A DNA stretch of 10,942 nucleotides from a virus (lineage: Duplodnaviria; Heunggongvirae; Uroviricota; Caudoviricetes): IMG/VR virus record IMGVR_UViG_2778261459_000006. One strand, given 5' to 3'. A program made the position numbers and the translations under genes. The notes under the pieces were generated by a model, which saw only the letters and a list, made by a program, of their open reading frames with translations, was not told the origin of the DNA and made no database searches. How positions within the stretch are numbered: position 1 is the first letter of the stretch; each line of letters begins with the position of its first letter. Below are positions 495-10,942 of this stretch, in pieces.

Positions 495-524
495 TTGTAA
501 GCCACTCAAAAGCAGGTTTACAAT
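495..524 (+). promoter_or_regulatory. Candidate sigma70 promoter for the alpA-like operon
   Basis: TTGTAA (495-500), 18-bp spacer, TACAAT (519-524). TTGTAA and TTACAA form an inverted pair 17 bp apart, a possible operator. Sequence match only. Confidence 0.35.
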
Positions 525-556: not shown

Positions 557-841
557 ATGAACGCAAACATTGAACAGCAAGTCATGACAATGAAAGACGT
601 CTGCAAACTGTTAAACCGCTCAAGAACGTCAGTTTACGTTGCCATGATGCGCTACCAGGATTTTCCGGAGCCTATGTCACGCGGTCACGGTGTGCGAATG
701 GTCTGGTTAAAGTCTGAGTTAATTGCCTGGTACGAGCAGCACAAGGACGAGCTCGAAGAATCACGGAAAAACGGAATGATCCCGAATGAAAAGGCGATGC
801 GGAAACAACAACAAAAAGAGGAAGTAGAAAATGCTAACTGA
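557..841 (+). CDS. AlpA-family (phage AlpA/Xis-like HTH) regulator, 94 aa
   Basis: ATG at 557 with GAGGA 8 nt upstream. The segment MKDVCKLLNRSRTSVYVAMMRYQDFPEP...WLKSELIAWYE fits the AlpA/excisionase-type HTH pattern by eye. Stop TGA overlaps the next start (ATGCTAACTGA). Confidence 0.75.
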   Translation: MNANIEQQVMTMKDVCKLLNRSRTSVYVAMMRYQDFPEPMSRGHGVRMVWLKSELIAWYEQHKDELEESRKNGMIPNEKAMRKQQQKEEVENAN

Positions 842-1841
842 TACGACTTTACTGCCCGGCCTTGATGATCCAGCACCGTGGGATGATTCCGGCGGAGAGC
901 AGAAAGAAAAACGCCCGGGTGGGAAAGACCAGGGCGATGAGATGGAATCTGATAATGACACCGAATCCAATACGAATATTATCGCAGCAGATGACGGAAA
1001 CATCAACGGCAATAGCGGTAAAAATTCGTCTGCCGTTGAGGAAATCAGAGCAACGAAACCAATAGACCACAGCCTATGGGGATTGCGCAGTTCAGCACGC
1101 AAACCAGTAGCGAAAGCAACCACGGAAGAGCCTAAAGACATGTGGGCGGAAATCCTGGAAGAGGAAGAAAACGAGCAAGCCACGCAGAGTAACCCAGCCG
1201 TCAATCAAAGCGATGATCGTGATGAATGGGTGAAAAAGATGAGCGCTCTTTCGAAACAGTTACGCAATAAAAACAGCGACGGTTGGAAACAATACGAAAG
1301 CGTGCCGCCTGTCGGGATTCAGGACGACATAAAGAAATCAGATTCAGGCATTGCAGTACGCGAGGGTAAGGAGTTCCGGCAGCGTGATGATCTGGTCATA
1401 GAATCGCGTGAAATAACGCGGCCAGAAGCGCCAGGAAGCAACGAAACGCATGAGGCTGAACAATCGCAAGGCCAGCAGGAAACAGTAAGCGAGAAGGCTG
1501 ATAAGGACTGGCGCGGCGGCGACTACTACAGCTATACGAGCGAAGGATGCGCGCATCGCGCCTTTGACCGGGCTATCAAGTATAAGAGTGACGATAAGAC
1601 ATACTGGCAGACAAAAGGGATTTTTCTGACCATCGCCAGTGCAGCACGCAGGAACAATGACGGGGAATGGGTGACTAAAATGACCATATCATCACTGACT
1701 GGCGACACTCACGGTAACGCGTCCAGGAAGATCAAGGGTTGGATAGAAAGACTGGAGAAAGCTGGCCTATTAATCCCGCTTGAGACGAGTAAGAGAGACG
1801 GGAGAGCGTGGAAAATGGGATTCACGGTCCATCGAGGTTAA
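831..1841 (+). CDS. Hypothetical 336-aa protein: long acidic low-complexity N-terminal region plus a C-terminal winged-helix-like domain; candidate iteron-binding replication protein
   Basis: ATG at 831 with GAGGAAG upstream, overlapping the alpA-like stop. N-terminal about 230 aa is rich in D/E/N/S/Q; the C-terminal about 100 aa (…GIFLTIASAARRNNDGEWVTKMTISSL…KIKGWIERLEKAGLLIPLE) looks like a DNA-binding winged helix. Sits directly upstream of the terminator and iterons. Function is inferred from position only. Confidence 0.7.
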   Translation: MLTDTTLLPGLDDPAPWDDSGGEQKEKRPGGKDQGDEMESDNDTESNTNIIAADDGNINGNSGKNSSAVEEIRATKPIDHSLWGLRSSARKPVAKATTEEPKDMWAEILEEEENEQATQSNPAVNQSDDRDEWVKKMSALSKQLRNKNSDGWKQYESVPPVGIQDDIKKSDSGIAVREGKEFRQRDDLVIESREITRPEAPGSNETHEAEQSQGQQETVSEKADKDWRGGDYYSYTSEGCAHRAFDRAIKYKSDDKTYWQTKGIFLTIASAARRNNDGEWVTKMTISSLTGDTHGNASRKIKGWIERLEKAGLLIPLETSKRDGRAWKMGFTVHRG

Positions 1842-1853
1842 ATCAGCAGCAAA

Positions 1854-1878
1854 GCCCGCCGCGTTGGCGGGTTTTTTG
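1854..1878 (+). terminator. Rho-independent terminator after the 336-aa gene
   Basis: Stem CCCGCC (1855-1860) / GGCGGG (1866-1871), loop GCGTT, then TTTTTT (1872-1877). Confidence 0.75.
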
Positions 1879-1933: not shown

Positions 1934-1942
1934 TGTGGATAA
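1934..1942 (-). promoter_or_regulatory. DnaA box, perfect TTATCCACA consensus
   Basis: The + strand reads TGTGGATAA, the reverse complement of TTATCCACA. It lies 12 bp upstream of the iteron array. Confidence 0.6.
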
Positions 1943-1953
1943 CTCAAGATGAA

Positions 1954-2084
1954 CCATCAGTTTTGTACCCATATAAAAATCGAACCATCAGTTTTGTACC
2001 CATATACCATCAGTTTTGTACCCATATAACCATCTTTGAACCATCAGTTTTGTACCCATATACCATCAGTTTTGTACCCATATG
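1954..2084. repeat. Iteron array: five direct copies of the 22-bp unit CCATCAGTTTTGTACCCATATA; candidate plasmid-type replication origin
   Basis: Exact copies at 1954-1975, 1985-2006, 2007-2028 and 2041-2062; the copy at 2063-2084 ends in G. A truncated copy (CCATCTTTG) lies at 2030-2038. Flanked by a DnaA box upstream and an AT-rich tract downstream. Confidence 0.9.
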
Positions 2085-2130
2085 ATTCCCTGAGGGCCGC
2101 GCCGCATCTGGACTACGCCGCCCATTAAGA

Positions 2131-2200
2131 GGTTTTAAGAGAAAAAAAGATAAGAGTATTAAGATCAGGATATTTATTTTTCATAGATCTATGATTGGTG
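2131..2200. other. AT-rich tract next to the iterons; possible DNA-unwinding element
   Basis: AT-rich sequence including A7 and T5 runs and GATC sites, immediately after a GC-rich block (2093-2125). Confidence 0.35.
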
Positions 2201-2525
2201 ACCTTCGGAAAATCATCCGGGTATTGCTAGCTTGCTATTGGCCTGGCAGTGGGCCTACGGCTGGGAACTGGAGAACATGAAACGACGTAAGGCACGGAGC
2301 GCCCACCATAGGCAGACACATAAACATCTGAGAGCGCGCCTTCTATCGCGCTACGCGCTCAATAAAAACCAACGACACCGCCATCCTGAAAGACCAATGG
2401 TTTTATCTCGTATACAGACCAGACATGAAACAGCAGGCTGAAGTGAACACTCAAGCAAGTTTATCCCGCCGCAGACTACCGCAAACTATCATGACCGTGC
2501 AGAATTCGAACTGAATGCCCCCTAG

Positions 2526-2635
2526 AACGCGATGAACACACATACCCGCTACGATTGCATACCTTAAAATCTCACCTCACCACAGAGCGATTGAGACGCC
2601 TTAAAATTGATGCGATTTCGCTAAATTTTTTCACT
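2526..2635. repeat. Long imperfect direct repeat, copy A (about 110 bp)
   Basis: Aligns with 2836-2946; shared blocks AACGCGATNAACACACATA and TTAAAATNGATGCGATTTC..TAAATTTTTTCACT. Confidence 0.85.
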
Positions 2636-2674
2636 TGATGCAGAGCTGTATGCGTGAAGGACAGTTGCGTCCGC

Positions 2675-2735: not shown

Positions 2736-2835
2736 TGGCAAGCCTCACAACCTCCAACGGAGGAAGCTGGGTTAATCAGCTTGATTCTGAGCCGATTGCC
2801 AGCCGGACTACTGACCAGATACTGCCAGGCCATTC

Positions 2836-2946
2836 AACGCGATTAACACACATAAGCGCCACACTTACTTACCTGAAAACTTCACAGCGTCACAGCGCGT
2901 TTTAGACACGTTAAAATCGATGCGATTTCATTAAATTTTTTTCACT
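2836..2946. repeat. Long imperfect direct repeat, copy B (about 111 bp)
   Basis: Aligns with 2526-2635, 310 bp downstream of copy A; the 3' end contains the small palindrome AATCGATGCGATT. Confidence 0.85.
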
Positions 2947-3072
2947 CGCCTGAATGGTGGCAATCAGGACTGATTGCAACATTGCCCCGCCTCGATACTG
3001 AGCGCATAATAAATACATACATTAAGCGGAAACGTCATTAACAGATTTGGAAAAAACAATGGGTTAAACATC

Positions 3073-3693
3073 ATGCGCATATCAAAGCAGCAACGCCAAA
3101 TCCTCGACTATCTGGCAGAAAACGAATCAATCACAGCACGCCAGGCGGCAGATCTCGTTTATGGCGGCAACGTTACCCGCGTACAGGTCGATGCAGCCCG
3201 CCGTTCACTGATGGCGCTGGTCAGCAATGGGCTAATCATGAAACAAGGCCGCGCTTTCGTAGCTGAAAGACATATCAATCACGCTTATAGCCAGGACGTT
3301 GAAGAGTTGCGCCGTCAGATCCTTTGGGTATTCAGCAAAGAGGGGCAGGACTATCTCATTTCTGAGCGTCCAAATTACGCCGCCAAAGAGTTAACAGTAA
3401 GCGGATTGTCGTGCGCACTGGATTATCTTGTCGGTGAAGGTTGCGTTACTTACAAGCAGCTATGGCACGCCCTGAACACGCTTGTAGAAGATGGTTTACT
3501 CATTGCCACGCGTGAGAATATCGAATACTGGATAATGCCGCGTTCAGGTCGCCGCAATCATGCGCGGTATATTTCAGGCAACAAATACAGAACGCCTGAC
3601 TTTAATCCGACACAGGAAGATCGGGACCGTGCCGAAATGATGTGCAGGGAACGGGAGAAAAGATTCATGGACAAGTTGTTTTCGATGCGGTGA
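3073..3693 (+). CDS. 206-aa protein with two tandem winged-helix-like domains; candidate DNA-binding regulator or Rep-like protein
   Basis: ATG at 3073, stop TGA at 3691-3693, then a terminator. Segments QRQILDYLAENESITARQAADLV...LVSNGLIMKQGR and LSCALDYLVGEGCVTYKQLWHALNTLVEDGLLIA each look like a winged helix. Confidence 0.7.
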   Translation: MRISKQQRQILDYLAENESITARQAADLVYGGNVTRVQVDAARRSLMALVSNGLIMKQGRAFVAERHINHAYSQDVEELRRQILWVFSKEGQDYLISERPNYAAKELTVSGLSCALDYLVGEGCVTYKQLWHALNTLVEDGLLIATRENIEYWIMPRSGRRNHARYISGNKYRTPDFNPTQEDRDRAEMMCREREKRFMDKLFSMR

Positions 3694-4213: not shown

Positions 4214-4393
4214 ATGAAATCCATTACCCTGAAAGAAGTCTGCAATATTGCAGGCGTTACCCCTGAGACGTATCGGCGCTGGTTAAAAGAAAACTTGCCC
4301 GGTATCCCGTTACCATATACCCCGAAAGGGAAACATCTTCGTTTTTATGAGGACGAAGTGGTCGCCTGGATTAAAGGCCAGCGTGAGGGATAA
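4214..4393 (+). CDS. AlpA/Xis-family small HTH protein, 59 aa; absent from the ORF track
   Basis: AGGAG 8 nt upstream of ATG 4214. Translation is MKSITLKEVCNIAGVTPETYRRWLKENLPGIPLPYTPKGKHLRFYEDEVVAWIKGQREG, a paralog-like pattern of the 557..841 protein (LKEVC / MKDVC ... V-W ... W). Confidence 0.7.
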   Translation: MKSITLKEVCNIAGVTPETYRRWLKENLPGIPLPYTPKGKHLRFYEDEVVAWIKGQREG

Positions 4394-4425
4394 AGCAGTT
4401 TTTTATATTAAGAAGGGATTGGTAA

Positions 4426-5001
4426 ATGAGAAATGAAATCAAATATCAACATATCAAGCGTCTGTGGTGTCTAAAAGATGGCGTTATTTTTACGAGATGG
4501 GGCAATAAGCCTGTTTCTTTCTCCTGTAAAGTAAACGGGCGCCGCTATACAACGATTAAAGTTAACGGAAAATGGCACGCAGTTCTTATTTATGAAGCTA
4601 TTTTTATGCTGTTCCATGACCGCCCAATCGCTGAAGGAAAAGAAATCCACCACAAGGACGGCGATCCAGAAAATAACGCAATTGACAATCTTGTCGAGCT
4701 AACCAGAACGCAGCACAAGAGGATTCATCAATATCAGTGCAACGACCCGCTGCGCGGTATTTGCCTGAATCAAGGCGCATGGGAATTTAAATGGTATGAC
4801 GATAACGGAATATGCCGCAGCCGACGTTTCCACAGTATTAACGAGGCAATAAACTTCCGTGCCGAAATAGAAAAACCTCGCAGAAGAGAATTACGATTGC
4901 TAGGCTTGAACTGTCGTAAAAAATATCGCGGAATTACCGCAAGCCAACTACGCAAAATAAGCCGGAAGCAAAATTCTCGCTTATGGCGCACACACATTTA
5001 A
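4426..5001 (+). CDS. HNH endonuclease with an AP2-like DNA-binding domain, 191 aa
   Basis: HNH signature IHHKDGDPENNAIDNLVELTRTQHKRIH, then an AP2-like segment RGICLNQGAWEFKWYDDNGICRSRRFHSINEAINFRAEI. AAGGGA RBS upstream. Confidence 0.85.
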   Translation: MRNEIKYQHIKRLWCLKDGVIFTRWGNKPVSFSCKVNGRRYTTIKVNGKWHAVLIYEAIFMLFHDRPIAEGKEIHHKDGDPENNAIDNLVELTRTQHKRIHQYQCNDPLRGICLNQGAWEFKWYDDNGICRSRRFHSINEAINFRAEIEKPRRRELRLLGLNCRKKYRGITASQLRKISRKQNSRLWRTHI

Positions 5002-5020
5002 ACAACTGGAGATTTTTATC

Positions 5021-5287
5021 ATGTCTACTCATTCATTAGAACGCTTTATGAATATCGCACCGAAATCAGCTGAACAGGAAGCGCGCGAACAATTTCAGCG
5101 AAAACTAGAAGCAGCAGCGCGGCACATTGTCGAGAAGATGCCGGAGCTACTAATCCCGTTGATGGAAGAGCTGGCAGCAGAGCTTCAGAAAGAGATGCCG
5201 CAAGATATGGAAGGGACGGCACTACAACGACTGCAGTTTGAAGCAAGCCGCTTACTACATCTTCCAGTAGGTGCATTTCGTAAATAA
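5021..5287 (+). CDS. Hypothetical protein, 88 aa, predicted helical
   Basis: ATG start with GGAG upstream; tightly packed between the HNH gene and the next ORF. No family recognised. Confidence 0.55.
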   Translation: MSTHSLERFMNIAPKSAEQEAREQFQRKLEAAARHIVEKMPELLIPLMEELAAELQKEMPQDMEGTALQRLQFEASRLLHLPVGAFRK

Positions 5288-5302
5288 CAGGGAGAACGAA
5301 CT

Positions 5303-5998
5303 ATGAGCAAAACACAGGAAAGAATACACGAGCTTGAGGCTAAATATAGCCGCTTGCTGACTGAGCGTGACCATGCAACTGGCGCTGATCGCTATCTTGC
5401 GGAAAAAGAACTGAAAGCTACTCGTAAGATGATCATTAAGTTGCACGGTAAAAGCATTACAGAAGAGATACAGGGCCAAATACCTGACATGGTGAAACAT
5501 GCACTTGCTGGTGTAACTGCCCAGGTAACCGAACTGCGTAAACAAGCTGGCATGAAGGTTAATGCTGACGAAAAGCCGGACGAAACGCCAGACGAAAAGC
5601 CGCGTGATGAGCGTATCGCTGAGGCTTTGCATGTGGTTAAGAGCAATCTGCTTAACATGGAAATTGATGACCTCATCGACCTTCGGGATCGTGTCCTCAA
5701 GGCGGTTGAAAGTCGTAACCAGGCAGCAGAGCAAAACAAGCTGGCAGACATGACGGTTAACGCGAACCACGTCGGAGCACCGGACGCCGCCAGTTACTTT
5801 GACCCTAATCTGCCGAAAGAGATAGCTGACTACCTCGATCCGCCGTTGCCGCCAGAAATTGAAGCGCATTTCGCCGAAACGAAAACGGTCGCAGGGGTTG
5901 ACCTGGATTCATACTTTCAGGGCAACAATGAAGCGGCAGGGATTGATTTAGACGAATATTTCCTGCCAAGCAAGCACTACAGCGTAAGTAAAGACTGA
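5303..5998 (+). CDS. Hypothetical protein, 231 aa, with acidic C-terminal repeats
   Basis: GGGAGA RBS 7 nt upstream of the ATG. Short repeats DEKPDETPDEKP and DLD(S/E)YF / YFDPNLP / YLDPPLP. Followed by a terminator. No family recognised. Confidence 0.7.
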   Translation: MSKTQERIHELEAKYSRLLTERDHATGADRYLAEKELKATRKMIIKLHGKSITEEIQGQIPDMVKHALAGVTAQVTELRKQAGMKVNADEKPDETPDEKPRDERIAEALHVVKSNLLNMEIDDLIDLRDRVLKAVESRNQAAEQNKLADMTVNANHVGAPDAASYFDPNLPKEIADYLDPPLPPEIEAHFAETKTVAGVDLDSYFQGNNEAAGIDLDEYFLPSKHYSVSKD

Positions 5999-6005
5999 GC
6001 AAACA

Positions 6006-6026
6006 GGGGCCGCAGCGCCCCTTTTC
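6006..6026 (+). terminator. Rho-independent terminator after the 231-aa gene
   Basis: Stem GGGGC / GCCCC with a 6-nt loop, followed by TTTT. Confidence 0.6.
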
Positions 6027-6045
6027 ACTTTCTGGAGATGAGATC

Positions 6046-6324
6046 ATGTCAACGTCAATTACACTTCGGATCTGTATGGGTATGGCACGCGTTATCACGA
6101 AAGAGGTCACAGATATTAAGCACAGCAGCCGGGAGCTACCATTGCGCCGCCAGCAGTTGCGGATTTTCGCCAGTTACGTTTTTGGCACGTTCGCATCACT
6201 GAAGCGCAAATTGAATGGCGGGCCGGTCAGCAATGAAGAAGCGAATTTTTTAAAAAGACTCACGATGATAGAAAAAGACCTGCACACGCAGTTAGAAAGT
6301 ATCAAGGCAGACGTAGGCGAGTAA
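6046..6324 (+). CDS. Hypothetical protein, 92 aa
   Basis: ATG at 6046 with GGAG 9 nt upstream; stop TAA at 6322-6324. No family recognised. Confidence 0.5.
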   Translation: MSTSITLRICMGMARVITKEVTDIKHSSRELPLRRQQLRIFASYVFGTFASLKRKLNGGPVSNEEANFLKRLTMIEKDLHTQLESIKADVGE

Positions 6325-6375
6325 GTTAGCGAGGTGTTAGCGAACGATAGCGGGTAGTTAGCGAACGATAACGGG
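6325..6375. repeat. Tandem direct repeats of GTTAGCGA; two extended 19-bp copies, GTTAGCGAACGATA(G/A)CGGG, at 21-bp period
   Basis: Copies at 6325-6332, 6336-6354 and 6357-6375, intergenic, immediately upstream of the tail module. Confidence 0.8.
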
Positions 6376-6458
6376 CCGTTTTTTGAAGTTAGTTTTCAAT
6401 GCTAAAACCGCCGAAATCCGCGCCATACGGGTTTTTGCACTATATGAGGGGCGCTTTT

Positions 6459-6722
6459 ATGGGGGTAATTTTCGGACAAGTACTATGCGCGCGCGAGGCA
6501 ATCATGAAGCAAGACATAGCGGAAAGGCTGGAGATACTCGAAAACCAGCGAGAAGAAGCCAGACAGATGCGCAGGGAGGCAAATAAAGAGGGCCGGAAAA
6601 AAGATGCATGGCATCTGAGACAATTCATCAACTTTACAAACCGTTGCATCCAGGAGTGCTACATGGAAGACGCAGAAAACTGGCTGGATTCCTTGCCAGA
6701 AAAGCACGGAACAGAGCGATGA
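6459..6722 (+). CDS. Hypothetical protein, 87 aa from the RBS-supported ATG at 6459 (the ORF track starts it at 6399; 6504 is another possible start)
   Basis: GAGGGG 7 nt upstream of ATG 6459. The protein is charged and helical (…IAERLEILENQREEARQMRREANKEGRKK…). Stop TGA at 6720-6722, in the same frame as the next ORF. Confidence 0.45.
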   Translation: MGVIFGQVLCAREAIMKQDIAERLEILENQREEARQMRREANKEGRKKDAWHLRQFINFTNRCIQECYMEDAENWLDSLPEKHGTER

Positions 6723-6743
6723 TTGTTAGACGAAGGGGGTTAC

Positions 6744-7184
6744 ATGCCGATGAGACACCAGGCTGTCATTGAGCAGATCAAGCGGCAGCTAAGGGAAGAA
6801 ATCAAAGAGATTAGCAAGGACGCGGCGACAGCCGCATATGAGATCGCTATCACTGCCGAAGGCTATGCGGTAGCAGATACACCGAGAGACACGGGCACAC
6901 TTATAAACGGCTATTACATCAATATTGACGAAAATCCTGATGGTGCGCACGCCACTTTAGGTAATACGGAACGCTATGCGTATTGGGTTCATGAAATGCC
7001 GGGGATACTGAAAGGTCAACCGCGCGAACATTTCGGGAAGACAAGGGAAGGCGTTGCCTTTGGTGGCGGTACTGAAAAGGGTTGCTATTGGGATCCTGAT
7101 GCAAGGCCCAAATTCCTTGAGCTTGCGCTCGATGAGCATTACGACGAGTTTATGGATATAGCACGCAAATATTTAAAGCGATGA
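6744..7184 (+). CDS. HK97 gp10-like protein (tail completion / head-tail joining family), about 146 aa
   Basis: Motifs PRDTGTL, YAYWVHE and ARPKFLELAL fit the HK97 gp10-like pattern as I recall it. The ORF-track start at 6723 is a TTG; the ATG at 6744 follows a GAAGGGGG RBS. Confidence 0.6.
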   Translation: MPMRHQAVIEQIKRQLREEIKEISKDAATAAYEIAITAEGYAVADTPRDTGTLINGYYINIDENPDGAHATLGNTERYAYWVHEMPGILKGQPREHFGKTREGVAFGGGTEKGCYWDPDARPKFLELALDEHYDEFMDIARKYLKR

Positions 7185-7193
7185 GGTGAGATC

Positions 7194-9374
7194 ATGGGTG
7201 AACAGGTCGGAAGCCTTCAGATAGATATTGACCTGAAGACAAAAAATTTATTGGTAAGCCAAAACCAGGCTGAAAACGCGCTTGATAATATTGGCAATAA
7301 AATCAGCGGTGTGGAACGCAAAACAAAGACCTTTAACACGCAGTTAACTAAAACATCTGCCGCAGTCAAAAGCAGCCTTTCCCCGGCAATTCGCAACGCA
7401 TCGTTTCAGATCGCGGATTTAGCTACCCAATTGCAGATGGGCGGTAATGCTCTGGCGGCATTTGCCGTTCAGGGCGCACAGTTATTAGCTGGCTTTGGCA
7501 CGATGGGCGCGGTAGCTGGCGCGGTGCTGGCTATAGCTGGCGCTATGGGTGGAAGCCTGGCACAAGGCGCTGATAGTGCAGCCGGATCGGTTGAGTACCT
7601 GGACAAGGCGATCACCAAACTGAACGAGGTCATAGCTGTAAATGAGCAGGGCGTGACGGTGATGACTGATAGTTACGCCAATCTTTCTAAGGTTAACGCT
7701 GAAGTAGCGAAACAGATGCGGAACATGGCTGAAATTCAGGCAATTGCAGCACTGCGTGACCTGAAAGAACAGGCAAGCCAGGCACAGGGGGAAATGTCAT
7801 CATTCTGGCGTAGCTTGCAGGGCGGTAAAGCTGACGCAGCAGCAGCAGCACAGGCACTTGATGACCTGGGAATCACGACCAACGACTATAAAGAAGCGAT
7901 CGCCACACTTAACGCCAATCAGCCGGATACACAGGCGCAGATGGCGACGCTGGCTAAATCCGTGATGTATGTTGGCGAAGAATACGATCTGACCAATCAG
8001 CAAGCCTACGAATTCATCCGGGCGCTGAATAAGGCCGCGACAACGAAAACACCGGAAGCAATGCAGGAGCTATCTGGCTTCATGCAGGTATTGCTACAGG
8101 ACACAGAAAACGGTAACGAGGCATTCAGGGAACTGGCTATCAAATTCGTTGATGCACAAACCAAAGGCGCAATGCTGGAAGACCAACTAAACCGACTGAA
8201 AGGCGCTATCAGTGACGCAGCCACAGAAGCCAGAAACGCCAATTTTACCACTATGCTCAACACCGTCGCCGCACGCCTGGCAGCCATTGAGCAAGGTTGG
8301 GAGGCAGGTGTCAGGATGCAGATGAAAGCCCAGGGCTACACTGAAGAGCAGATCGATGAATATGTGAACATGGAAACGGCGTACAGGGATGCAAAAGCCG
8401 CTTTGGACGAGAAGAACAAGGCCGACCGTGAAGCAATTGCGCTATCCAAACGCCAGGCCGCAGAAGCCGCCCGCAAGGCAAAACAGGAAGAAGCTGAAGC
8501 ACAACGCAAGGCCAAACAGTTAGCGGCGCAGAAAGAACAGGCCGGACGCTTTACGCAGCAGGTGATGACGGAATATCAAACGACCGTGGATCCGGCAACA
8601 GGCCAGGCGTTGAACCCTGCCGCACAAGTGGAAATGCAGGAGCAGCAGAAGAAAACGGCATTAGATAAATACAGGCAGTTGGGTGTTTTGGGTGAGCAGG
8701 AGTATCAGAACACGCTAACAGCCATCCAGAAAACTGCATCAATGCGCCGCCAGCAAATCATCAAAGACGAGGCTGACACGTTATTCAACAATCAGCAGCA
8801 GTTGATCGGCACATTTGGCGATTTCTTCGGTGAACTGTCTGGAGTCATAGCAGACGGCGCGGGTGAGCAAAATGCGGCATATCAAGCGCTATTTGCTGTG
8901 CAGAAGGGGTTTGTATTGGCGTCGGCAGCTTTAAGCCTTCAAAAAGCGCTGGCAGAGGCAAACGCCTTACCTTTCCCGGCTAACCTTCCGGCCTATGCGC
9001 AAGCGATGTCAGCAGGTACGCAGATCATTTCAGCTATTCGTGGAATAGCTTTCGGTGGCGGACGCTACAACGGCGGCGCGGTTGGTGCTGGCAACCTGTA
9101 CCGCGTGGGTGAACACGGTAAGCCTGAGATATTCAAGGCGAACAATGGCAGCCAGTACATGATCCCAGGTGATAACGGTCGCGTGATAAGTAATCGTGAC
9201 ATTGGCGGCGGTGGCGGCGTAACAATCAACAGCCCGATCACCATTAACACTACGAATGGCTTCAGTGATGAAGACTCAAGGCGTCTTGAGGAAGCGATGA
9301 AGCGCGTAGCTATGGGCGTTTGCAGGCAGGAGTCAACCAGACCGGGAGGAATGTTAGCCCCGCGCCGCCGTTAA
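7194..9374 (+). CDS. Phage tail tape measure protein, lambda gpH-like, 726 aa
   Basis: N-terminus MGEQVGSLQIDIDLK, then a Gly/Ala-rich hydrophobic segment (…AAFAVQGAQLLAGFGTMGAVAGAVLAIAGAMGG…), a K/A/E/Q-rich helical region and a glycine-rich C-terminus with GNLYRVGEHGKPEIF. This resembles lambda-H-family proteins by eye. Confidence 0.8.
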   Translation: MGEQVGSLQIDIDLKTKNLLVSQNQAENALDNIGNKISGVERKTKTFNTQLTKTSAAVKSSLSPAIRNASFQIADLATQLQMGGNALAAFAVQGAQLLAGFGTMGAVAGAVLAIAGAMGGSLAQGADSAAGSVEYLDKAITKLNEVIAVNEQGVTVMTDSYANLSKVNAEVAKQMRNMAEIQAIAALRDLKEQASQAQGEMSSFWRSLQGGKADAAAAAQALDDLGITTNDYKEAIATLNANQPDTQAQMATLAKSVMYVGEEYDLTNQQAYEFIRALNKAATTKTPEAMQELSGFMQVLLQDTENGNEAFRELAIKFVDAQTKGAMLEDQLNRLKGAISDAATEARNANFTTMLNTVAARLAAIEQGWEAGVRMQMKAQGYTEEQIDEYVNMETAYRDAKAALDEKNKADREAIALSKRQAAEAARKAKQEEAEAQRKAKQLAAQKEQAGRFTQQVMTEYQTTVDPATGQALNPAAQVEMQEQQKKTALDKYRQLGVLGEQEYQNTLTAIQKTASMRRQQIIKDEADTLFNNQQQLIGTFGDFFGELSGVIADGAGEQNAAYQALFAVQKGFVLASAALSLQKALAEANALPFPANLPAYAQAMSAGTQIISAIRGIAFGGGRYNGGAVGAGNLYRVGEHGKPEIFKANNGSQYMIPGDNGRVISNRDIGGGGGVTINSPITINTTNGFSDEDSRRLEEAMKRVAMGVCRQESTRPGGMLAPRRR

Positions 9375-9636
9375 CCAACTCCCACGCCAGGGGGATAGAC
9401 TGGCGGACCCTTCACGCTCCTACGCAAAAATTCCCTCACAATCGCCCTGTCAATTTTTCAGATTTCACCAGAACGCGCCTGAAACAGCCTTCCCACATCC
9501 TTGATATTCCGTACGCCCTGCTAAAAGCGTGATCTGCGACAAAAATTGTACTTTTTGCCGTTGATTCGGGGTCTGTATGGGAATAATCTCACAATCAAAG
9601 AGAGGTAAGGGTATTTGGGAAATGGAGGAAAGTATC

Positions 9637-10263
9637 ATGGCTAACGCAGCTTATATTCGTGTTTCTACTATCGCTCAGGATACATTGCGCCAACGCGAGG
9701 CTATCGCTAACACTGGCATGAAGTTTGAGAAAATCGTTGAAGAGAAAAGGTCAGGTAAAGACCTCGATCGCCCGGCACTGCGGGAGCTATGCGGCTGGTT
9801 ACGTGAAGGTGACGACCTGTACGTCGCATCAATTGACCGCCTGGGGCGCAAACTGACTGATGTAATGGGCGTGGTTGATGAACTGCGGCAGAAAGGGGTT
9901 CGGGTCCACTTTCTGAAAGAAGGGCAGATCATCGGTGGCGAGATGAACGCGGTTCAGGAGTTCTTTATTCAGCTCATGGCAGCAGCCGCGCAGATGGAAC
10001 GTAGCTTTATGCTTGAACGCCAGAAAGAGGCGAACGAAGCCAGGAGGGCGGCAGGGAAACCGGTTGGGCGTGGGCTGGCACCGAAGATTAAGCAGCAGCT
10101 GCCGTACATCCTCAAGGACATGGAACAACGCAAGGAGTCCATGAGCGACCTTTGCCGCAAATACAAAGTGGCGCGAAGCACAATGTACCGGATCCGCGAC
10201 AACGCCATTCGTGACGGGAAGCTGCCGGAAATTGTGAAGGTCAAAAAGGTCGTCATCAACTAA
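9637..10263 (+). CDS. Small serine recombinase (resolvase/invertase family), 208 aa
   Basis: N-terminal catalytic pattern AYIRVSTIAQ...SGKDLDRPALREL...GDDLYVASIDRLGRKL...GVRVHFL and a C-terminal HTH (ARSTMYRIR). GGAGGA 7 nt upstream of ATG 9637; the ORF-track start at 9577 is probably too far upstream. Confidence 0.9.
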   Translation: MANAAYIRVSTIAQDTLRQREAIANTGMKFEKIVEEKRSGKDLDRPALRELCGWLREGDDLYVASIDRLGRKLTDVMGVVDELRQKGVRVHFLKEGQIIGGEMNAVQEFFIQLMAAAAQMERSFMLERQKEANEARRAAGKPVGRGLAPKIKQQLPYILKDMEQRKESMSDLCRKYKVARSTMYRIRDNAIRDGKLPEIVKVKKVVIN

Positions 10264-10517: not shown

Positions 10518-10942
10518 ATGTATCAGCCAATGACTTTACCGGATCTGCTATTTGCCGCCGCCGACCGCGCGGGCTATGTCAACAGTAGCGGCAAACTGAA
10601 ACGCAAGGGGTTAGCTGATGCTCTCGGTATCGGTGAGCAGGCGCTTAACAGCTACATGAAAGGTAGCCGGGATGTTAGCACAGAACAACTAAATAACATG
10701 CTGACATTGCTTGGCGTGTACGGCATCGCACCATTCAAGGGCAATCAATGGATGGCGCTGGACGTGGATTATAAAGCGCGTAGCGACGAGATTGTCAGTA
10801 ACAAGATGATTGCGCTGGAACGCGATAACCAGCAAAAGGCACAGCAGATCGCAGCACTGAAAGCTGAGATTGATATGTTGAAAAACCAGTTAAGCAACAA
10901 AATTGATATTGTAGACAAACCGGTTAATCAACAAATCGAGAC
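10518..10942 (+). CDS. 5' part of the junction-spanning XRE-type HTH regulator (continues at 1..408)
   Basis: ATG at 10518; the N-terminus has an HTH pattern (GLADALGIGEQALNSYMKGSRDVSTEQL) followed by a coiled-coil-like segment. The frame runs off the window end and is in phase with 1..408. Confidence 0.7.
   Translation, partial: MYQPMTLPDLLFAAADRAGYVNSSGKLKRKGLADALGIGEQALNSYMKGSRDVSTEQLNNMLTLLGVYGIAPFKGNQWMALDVDYKARSDEIVSNKMIALERDNQQKAQQIAALKAEIDMLKNQLSNKIDIVDKPVNQQIE
10866..10942. repeat. Terminal 77-nt exact duplicate of nt 1-77; circular-contig overlap
   Basis: Direct comparison shows 77 of 77 identical, ending exactly at the window edge. Confidence 0.85.

Follow-up and report, generated by a model that had tools for sequence, protein, structure and literature searches.

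A probable iteron-type theta origin behind the gene of an uncatalogued winged-helix protein in a circular ~11-kb Escherichia coli element

The DNA analyzed here, the window, is a whole stretch of 10,942 nucleotides (nt) filed as virus record IMGVR_UViG_2778261459_000006 of IMG/VR. Its first 77 nt are identical to its last 77 nt (positions 1–77 and 10866–10942), so that the window represents a circular molecule of 10,865 bp. We propose that positions 1934–2196 quite probably form the vegetative theta-type origin of this circular E. coli plasmid, and that the 336-amino acid (aa) protein encoded just upstream (termed Rep) is the cognate initiator. The sequence features of the region, the architecture common to the family, the covariation of the repeats with one domain of Rep and the circularity of the molecule were observed directly. 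The original prediction, an iteron-type origin lying directly after its initiator gene, is supported by the recurrence of this module in related elements and by direct repeats that appear to follow the sequence of the predicted C-terminal winged helix of Rep.

Repeats, DnaA box and A/T-rich tract downstream of rep

The 22-mer ACCATCAGTTTTGTACCCATAT is present in five mismatch-free copies, all on the + strand (1953–1974, 1984–2005, 2006–2027, 2040–2061 and 2062–2083), with start-to-start spacings of 31, 22, 34 and 22 nt. A partial copy of the iteron (AACCATCTTTG) occupies the spacer between the third and fourth copies. The ACCATCAGTTTTGTACCCATAT sequence was not found elsewhere in the circle, even when 3 mismatches were allowed, and 200 dinucleotide-preserving shuffles gave a mean of 0.00 matches (maximum 0). 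In the alignment of related elements (alignment A3) every copy within an element has the same variant, suggesting that the array changes in concert.

The TGTGGATAA sequence, the complement of the DnaA box TTATCCACA, is found at positions 1934–1942, 11 nt ahead of the first iteron, and is the sole perfect box in the window. About 0.08 perfect DnaA 9-mers are expected by chance on both strands of 10.9 kb, and a lone perfect 9-mer would count for little by itself; its weight comes from its position and its conservation. Among the related loci (L numbers), a perfect box lies beside the repeats in L003/L004, L005, L007, L012, L013 and L016 despite different iterons, and a box with one mismatch in L009–L011.

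Between the last iteron and the A/T-rich tract, the candidate DNA-unwinding element, lies a G+C-rich spacer that is conserved within the window's Rep class. The overall G+C content of the window is 48.6%; positions 2133–2192, with 20% G+C, are the lowest 60-nt segment of the circle, and nearest-neighbour energies place its least stable 40-mer at positions 2157–2196. Most relatives (L002, L003, L005, L007, L010, L013 and L016) have a tract rich in A or in T after the repeats, and L012 shares only the first ~25 nt of the tract of the window. The record of L008 lacks its first 204 nt, which makes joining of its ends invalid, and the same caveat applies beyond the ends of L006 and L014. We conclude that the repeats, the DnaA box and the A/T-rich tract are real and beyond chance. 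All three were located where the first reading of the letters had put them.

The position of the array invites another explanation. In plasmids P1 and F, iteron arrays placed 3′ of rep titrate or handcuff the initiator, and are control loci and not origins. The downstream iterons could likewise be a copy-number or incompatibility control array in the style of incA of P1 or incC of F, with the true origin elsewhere. We consider this distinctly unlikely: the circle has no second iteron array at the tolerance given above, the DnaA box and the least stable A/T tract flank only this array, and the three-part arrangement is kept across Rep classes. No other candidate origin or initiator was found in the circle.

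Covariation of the iterons with the winged helix of Rep

The domain plan of Rep was derived from alignment A1 and two AlphaFold2 models, with moderate confidence of the full-length model. Residues 1–132 are acidic and predicted to be disordered. Residues 150–196, with most of the invariant columns of A1, are modelled as a small, nearly invariant beta-rich domain (one helix and three strands, pLDDT 65–77), and we propose that they serve as an effector or recruitment domain. A predicted disordered linker (residues 197–238) leads to residues 239–333, which AlphaFold2 folds as a winged helix, the sole one of the full-length model; the winged-helix-like C-terminus expected for the 336-aa protein is thus found in the model.

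Rep gave no match in Pfam (E ≤ 0.1), NCBIfam, PHROG or PADLOC, and a PDB sequence search returned nothing significant. No helicase, primase or ATPase domain was detected with Pfam, NCBIfam or PHROGs or in the structure model. Fold searches returned only generic winged-helix proteins; the modelled fold fits a DNA-binding initiator and assigns no family. The 63 close homologues are all from E. coli or gut metagenomes, most of them on contigs of 10–12.4 kb, and only 23 proteins at E ≤ 0.001 emerged when 1.84 billion cluster representatives were searched exhaustively with the family profile. The distant relatives mostly carry the winged-helix model HTH_36. No relatives were found in GTDB representative genomes or in IMG/VR. 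When the DNA of the rep–origin module was searched, neither phages nor the 5,426 complete E. coli genomes gave a match, and PLSDB gave only a 91-nt match, outside the origin.

In every relative examined, rep is followed by a terminator, usually a DnaA box, and direct repeats, and then mostly by an A/T tract. A hairpin with a T-run lies at the same place after rep in all relatives; in the window, the fold of positions 1838–1885 that contains it has an energy of −21.9 kcal/mol (z −3.24). The repeats are of several types. L003/L004 (Rep class P0016) have six copies of CCATGTACCATCACAGATAGTACAT, L005 (class P0026) four copies of CCCCACCMAAAATGGGCTAGGTA, and L006 (class P0039) three copies of GACCATAGCCCCTGATGCATACAT. 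In L002, a chromosomal island between eutB and eutA, the module follows a 260-aa helix-turn-helix (HTH) protein and consists of five copies of GACGTGTGACATTTGGGACACAGGT followed by an AT tract. In L016, a complete 8,009-bp E. coli plasmid, it follows a 195-aa Rep homologue (28% identical), in the order TTATCCACA, about six 22-bp iterons, AT tract and second DnaA box. Two interleaved repeat types were observed in L015 (class P0060): within the first ~300 nt after rep (gene end 7778), AATGCAGTGTACCTGAAATCCCCACATG and GAGCATGTGTCCCTCTCGTACCCACATG take the place of one iteron type. The L015 sequence was joined across contig ends, and part of the apparent copy number may stem from the joining.

The winged helix is the variable part of Rep, with at least five unrelated sequence classes on the same N-terminal and central parts (alignment A1). 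In single relatives, identity to the window differs between the AlpA-like protein and the two parts of Rep. L012 has an AlpA-like protein of 42% identity and a Rep N-terminal part of 68%, but the last 100 residues of Rep are 96% identical and the iterons are the same. Conversely, L013 is 91% identical in the AlpA-like protein and 95% in the Rep N-terminal part, and only 82% in the last 100 residues, and its iterons (ATATGTTCACTTTCGTACCCATAT) are different. In L003 the Rep N-terminal part is 90% identical, the last 100 residues are 24% identical, and the iterons are unrelated. L010 and L007 have intermediate iteron variants.

In a Mantel-type test of 8 loci, iteron identity followed winged-helix identity (rho 0.82, p ∼0.002, a value that is indicative only because the loci are few and related), and gave rho 0.15 with the AlpA-like protein and −0.06 with the Rep N-terminal part. 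The dissociations seen in L012, L013 and L003 lead to this conclusion even without a statistical test. These data support that (i) the repeats vary in step with the C-terminal ~100 residues of Rep, and with neither its N-terminal part nor the AlpA-like protein; and (ii) specificity in this family is organized as a cassette, in which the iteron array appears to be exchanged together with these C-terminal residues. If the repeats have a role in incompatibility, as we propose, cassette exchange would allow one element to evade the replication control of a related one. The family, in which each of at least five classes of winged helix, and of several fine variants, has its own iterons on an otherwise conserved protein, is a natural experiment on specificity, and the Rep classes are ready-made chimeras for studies of recognition and incompatibility.

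An unusual gene lies beside the cassette of L006. Directly after rep, and overlapping its stop codon, a 189-aa open reading frame (ORF; 10969–11538, also protein P0106) encodes two winged-helix cassettes head-to-tail, one 89% identical to the C-terminus of P0016 and the other 79% identical to that of P0026; the N-terminal and central parts of Rep are missing from it. This ORF may be what is left of cassettes replaced one after another, or its product may occupy or block the iterons of rival elements.

The covariation also bears on other roles of the repeats. A partition centromere bound by a winged-helix protein of the TubR type would likewise be a direct-repeat array covarying with its binding protein, and TubR was the top Foldseek match of the C-terminal domain of Rep, albeit not a significant one (E 0.013, TM 0.37–0.44). 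This explanation is most improbable. No NTPase of the ParA, ParM or TubZ type was found in the window (where every ORF of at least 88 aa was scanned for domains), a centromere has no use for the conserved DnaA box and AT tract, and the plasmid would then have no recognisable origin or initiator.

We give hardly any credence to the repeats being a small-terminase packaging site or simply an array of transcriptional operators. Genes for an Sf6-like small terminase and an HNH nuclease are found in relatives, and terminase sites can be repeated. However, the window and L012 have identical iterons, although a Pfam terminase match is absent among the window ORFs scanned and L012 has an Sf6_terminase gene; the repeats track the winged helix of Rep and not the packaging genes. 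An operator array is opposed by the position of the repeats, which are preceded by a terminator and followed by ~0.9 kb of non-coding DNA and are hence not at a promoter.

For the origin that we favour, we infer Rep binding, DnaA dependence, the melting site, helicase recruitment and a role in incompatibility. The alpA-like/rep operon would be transcribed from the promoter candidate at about 495–524 and end at the terminator hairpin. The C-terminal winged helix of Rep would then bind the five iterons, and host DnaA would bind the perfect box. The Rep–DnaA complex would open the A/T-rich tract, ~45 nt downstream of the last iteron and the weakest duplex of the molecule, and the host helicase and replisome would be loaded for theta replication to follow. 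Since Rep has no helicase, primase or ATPase domain, loading would probably occur via the invariant central mini-domain, the acidic disordered N-terminus or both.

Several observations weigh against this proposal, as does the small set of related loci behind the correlation. No iteron-like inverted repeat or inverted half-iteron operator was found at the rep promoter, and many iteron plasmids autoregulate. A DnaA box was not found beside the repeats of L002, L006 and L015, so that dependence on DnaA may not be universal. From matching recognition regions, L013 was predicted to have the L010 iteron exactly, and this was borne out in part (22 of 24 nt the same). The winged helices of L013 and L010 are 97% identical and their iterons differ at 2 of 24 nt, indicating that the correspondence is graded and not one-to-one. 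Finally, GC skew gave no independent origin signal, and is uninformative here because all genes of the window are on one strand.

The element and its possibly satellite-like family

The features of the window are collected in Table 1. The promoter candidate is a pattern match only, with 7 such sites in the region and 4.0 expected.

Table 1. Positions of the origin region, the replication operon and other genes in the window.
Feature	Position	Strand	Remarks
Sigma-70-like promoter candidate, TTGTAA-18-TACAAT	495–524	+	Upstream of alpA-like/rep operon; consensus scan 9/12
AlpA-like small HTH gene, 94 aa	557–841	+	First gene of operon; 11-nt overlap with rep
rep, 336-aa candidate initiator	831–1841	+	
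Central-motif coding region (aa 150–196; DGWKQ..VPPVGI..IKKSDSGIAVREGKEFRQRDDLVIESRE)	1278–1418	+	Proposed effector/recruitment domain
C-terminal winged-helix coding region (aa 239–333)	1545–1829	+	Proposed iteron reader
Intrinsic terminator of alpA-rep operon, GCCCGCC-loop-GGCGGG then T6	1854–1877	+	
Perfect DnaA box	1934–1942	-	TTATCCACA on - strand
Five identical 22-bp iterons	1953–2083	+	Partial copy 2028–2038
G+C-rich spacer, iterons to AT tract	2084–2126	.	GC 0.57 in 2070–2129; conserved A3 columns
A/T-rich tract, proposed DNA-unwinding element	2127–2196	.	GATC at 2163 and 2186
Second small HTH gene	4214–4393		
HNH nuclease gene	4426–5001		
Tail-completion (HK97 gp10-like) gene	6723–7184		
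Tape-measure gene	7194–9374		726-aa product
Small serine recombinase gene	9577–10263		Resolvase domain 110 bits; PHROG DNA invertase

The family consists of ~11-kb circular E. coli contigs with a 726-aa tape measure, a tail-completion protein and an HNH nuclease, to which relatives add an Sf6-like small terminase. This gene content was read from window positions 4214–9374, from the whole loci L003, L005, L007 and L012, and from L001 (9563–19615) and L002 (9054–17788); no match to a capsid or large terminase was obtained among the family genes scanned. At least 129 of the 5,426 complete E. coli genomes carry an integrated relative at the CPZ-55 site, next to intZ and flanked by eutB and eutA. 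Islands L001 and L002 carry a tyrosine integrase at this eutB/eutA site.

Such gene content is unlike ordinary plasmid cargo and, read from the sequence, suggests a satellite-like lifestyle. Tentatively, and with less confidence than we place in the origin itself, we suggest that the origin is the maintenance module of an undescribed ~11-kb family of plasmid-resident, phage-satellite-like E. coli elements, the free-living kin of the eut/CPZ-55 'cryptic prophage' islands. These elements might bring the tape measure, tail-completion protein, HNH nuclease and small terminase to a helper phage, and might persist between infections as DnaA-dependent iteron plasmids, with the winged helix and the iterons as an exchangeable specificity cassette. 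If so, exchangeable cassettes would let several satellite-like elements coexist or displace one another. The candidate origin defines a replicon type of small E. coli plasmids outside the usual catalogues; the PLSDB record of the distant plasmid relative shows no replicon type. It also links free plasmids to CPZ-55-site islands, which are treated as cryptic prophages, and the kinship suggests that the islands are themselves replicating satellite-like elements or their descendants. In the literature searched, we found no paper linking CPZ-55 with satellites or describing this family.

A satellite could also use the origin differently. In Vibrio PLE, a RepA_N initiator origin is reported to fire with the helper phage, and the PLE RepA is without a helicase or primase domain (PMC7145576). 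By analogy, the origin might fire only upon helper-phage infection or induction, with Rep binding the iterons and phage proteins doing the unwinding and replisome loading. The phage-related genes carried (tape measure, tail completion and HNH, with the Sf6-like small terminase in relatives), the kinship with islands at the eut/intZ site and a Rep without helicase or primase domain, like PLE RepA (PMC7145576), are consistent with such a helper-dependent origin, as is the AlpA-like gene that heads the operon, as in Gram-negative phage-inducible chromosomal islands (PICIs; PMC6092414). We nonetheless regard it as rather unlikely. Many members were assembled from E. coli isolates as ~11-kb circular contigs of their own, with no recognisable integrase, and such free circles must be maintained without a lytic helper. 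Moreover, the host DnaA box is kept beside the iterons in most classes, and a distant relative of the module resides in a complete 8-kb plasmid. Terminal overlaps show circularity for L003 (30 nt), L005 (29 nt), L010 (99 nt) and L011 (55 nt), and the called genes of L003, L005 and L012 have no recorded integrase or recombinase domain, so that these elements need an autonomous origin.

The serine recombinase of the window, present also in L013, L015 and L016 and not detected in L003, L005, L007 and L012, probably serves as a multimer resolvase rather than as an integrase.

Two further candidates for the protein that acts at the repeats were considered. The AlpA-like protein reaches 29.3 bits with Pfam HTH_17 (cut-off 27) and 17.4 bits with Phage_AlpA, under the cut-off of that model, and matches PHROG excisionase/regulator families. 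Together with the overlap of the two genes and their shared terminator, this bears out the predicted operon of an AlpA-like gene and the 336-aa gene. As an iteron binder the AlpA-like protein was rejected, for its identity between elements does not track the iterons (rho 0.15, p 0.18).

The second candidate, a 206-aa winged-helix-like protein (3073–3693) also named at the outset as a possible initiator, was dropped. It is absent from L003–L008 and L012, all of which have rep and iterons, and is therefore not the initiator; the chromosomal islands L001 and L002 have other repeats and a 93–100% identical copy of the protein. Its 42 homologues are from E. coli and Shigella only, in ~11-kb circles and chromosomal islands. 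In strain MB19 the protein is 100% identical, and the overlapping annotated coding sequence is flagged there as a pseudogene (internal stop). It gave only weak winged-helix, Ren-like and Sta1-like matches.

About 360 nt of non-coding DNA just 3′ of the origin (2277–2640) are conserved in all family members, with any Rep class and with the chromosomal islands included. Over window positions 2833–3072 the identity to L001 is 98.8%. The last ~115 nt of the conserved block are duplicated in the window (2521–2640 and 2830–2945), and the insert between the copies holds AACTTTCTTGTTCAAAACC twice, at about 2677 and 2716. Also within this non-coding insert, a 91-nt stretch (2746–2836) has a 92% match to an unrelated 9-kb E. 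coli plasmid (CP057168.1), where the matching segment has no annotated feature; the stretch may represent a small sequence that is mobile or recombinogenic. RNAalifold on positions 2260–2650 gave no convincing structure, and Rfam gave no match there or over the whole window at E ≤ 1. The conserved block is possibly a promoter region, a packaging site or a part of the replicon.

The ORF at 10–408 is the 3′ part of a ~250-aa ORF that spans the circle junction (10518–10865 joined to 1–408). Its counterparts in relatives give a weak HTH_3 match, and the gene at the equivalent position of plasmid L016 is annotated as an XRE-family regulator. Since it lies directly upstream of the alpA-rep operon, it may encode the regulator of the element. 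A 34-nt tandem repeat at 4–70, inside this ORF, encodes a repeated peptide. A second tandem repeat, of 21 nt (TAGCGGGTAGTTAGCGAACGA, 2.3 copies, 6327–6375), lies in a short gap upstream of the genes for a 107-aa protein, the tail-completion protein and the tape measure, and could be a regulatory or recognition site.

Comparison with known replication systems

Iteron theta origins, such as RK2 oriV with TrfA, pSC101 with RepA, P1 oriR with RepA, F ori2 with RepE and R6K gamma with pi, have direct repeats of ~17–22 bp that are bound by a winged-helix initiator. The window shares with these classic plasmids the identical direct repeats, the adjacent DnaA box and an AT-rich tract with GATC sites. 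At least three near-identical direct repeats of ~17–24 bp, an adjacent AT-rich element and a DnaA box mark an iteron theta origin, and all are present here; covariation points to a cis-encoded cognate initiator specific for the iterons. The order of DnaA box, five iterons and AT-rich region we take to be closest to that of minimal RK2 oriV. In contrast to classic iteron plasmids, the origin here lies 3′ of rep, behind a terminator.

Rep is not a member of the Rep_3 initiator family (RepA, RepE and pi). It gives no match to PF01051 (Rep3_N) at E ≤ 0.1, and a distant relative, P0119, gives a sub-threshold one (18.4 bits vs. 22.4). Rep_3 proteins have a WH1–WH2 pair, whereas Rep has one C-terminal winged helix in the model, after ~130 disordered residues and a small conserved domain. 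With the lambda O-type initiators (TIGR01610, phage_O_Nterm) only the relative P0060 gives a match, of 13.1 bits against a cut-off of 45.5, and lambda O-type iterons lie inside the gene, whereas those of the window lie outside rep. One class of the family (e.g., P0026, P0030 and P0047) and most distant relatives reach the threshold of HTH_36 (PF13730) over the region that aligns with the C-terminal domain of the window's Rep, but this Rep itself has no match even at E ≤ 0.1, and HTH_36 names a DNA-binding fold and not a replication function.

The RepA_N initiators (pSK41/pTZ2162 RepA and PLE RepA; PMC7145576) are similar to Rep in that one winged helix reads the iterons and helicase or primase activity is absent. 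A second, lineage-specific part of RepA_N proteins is thought to recruit the host or phage machinery, and we liken it to the remaining parts of Rep. The domain order is reversed, however, with the winged helix C-terminal in Rep, and no Pfam RepA_N (PF06970) match was obtained. Structural searches placed RepA_N N-terminal domains (4pql, 4pt7, 5kbj and 4pta) among their better matches, but at most on a par with Fur, CRP and MarR-type regulators.

The likeness to PICI/SaPI satellites that had been drawn from the order of rep and origin stood in part. PICI/SaPI replication modules have alpA, pri-rep and then the origin 3′ of rep (PMC6092414). The window has the same gene order, with the AlpA-like gene, rep and the origin directly 3′ of rep, and resembles PICIs in its size of ~11 kb, one transcription direction, phage-related genes and kinship to integrase-bearing islands at a fixed site (eut/CPZ-55). 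Three further traits of PICIs are not shared. In PICI origins an AT-rich region lies between two sets of iterons, whereas here all five iterons are upstream of the AT tract and no copy follows it; PICI Rep is of the primase/helicase type, whereas Rep is without an enzymatic domain; and PICIs have a tyrosine integrase and a chromosomal attachment site, whereas the window is a free circle with a small serine recombinase only. The internal anatomy of the origin is therefore plasmid-like, and its gene order and island kinship are PICI-like. The mechanism to which this anatomy belongs, an iteron origin, is a textbook one, and the initiator family is an uncatalogued one with a cassette-like specificity domain.

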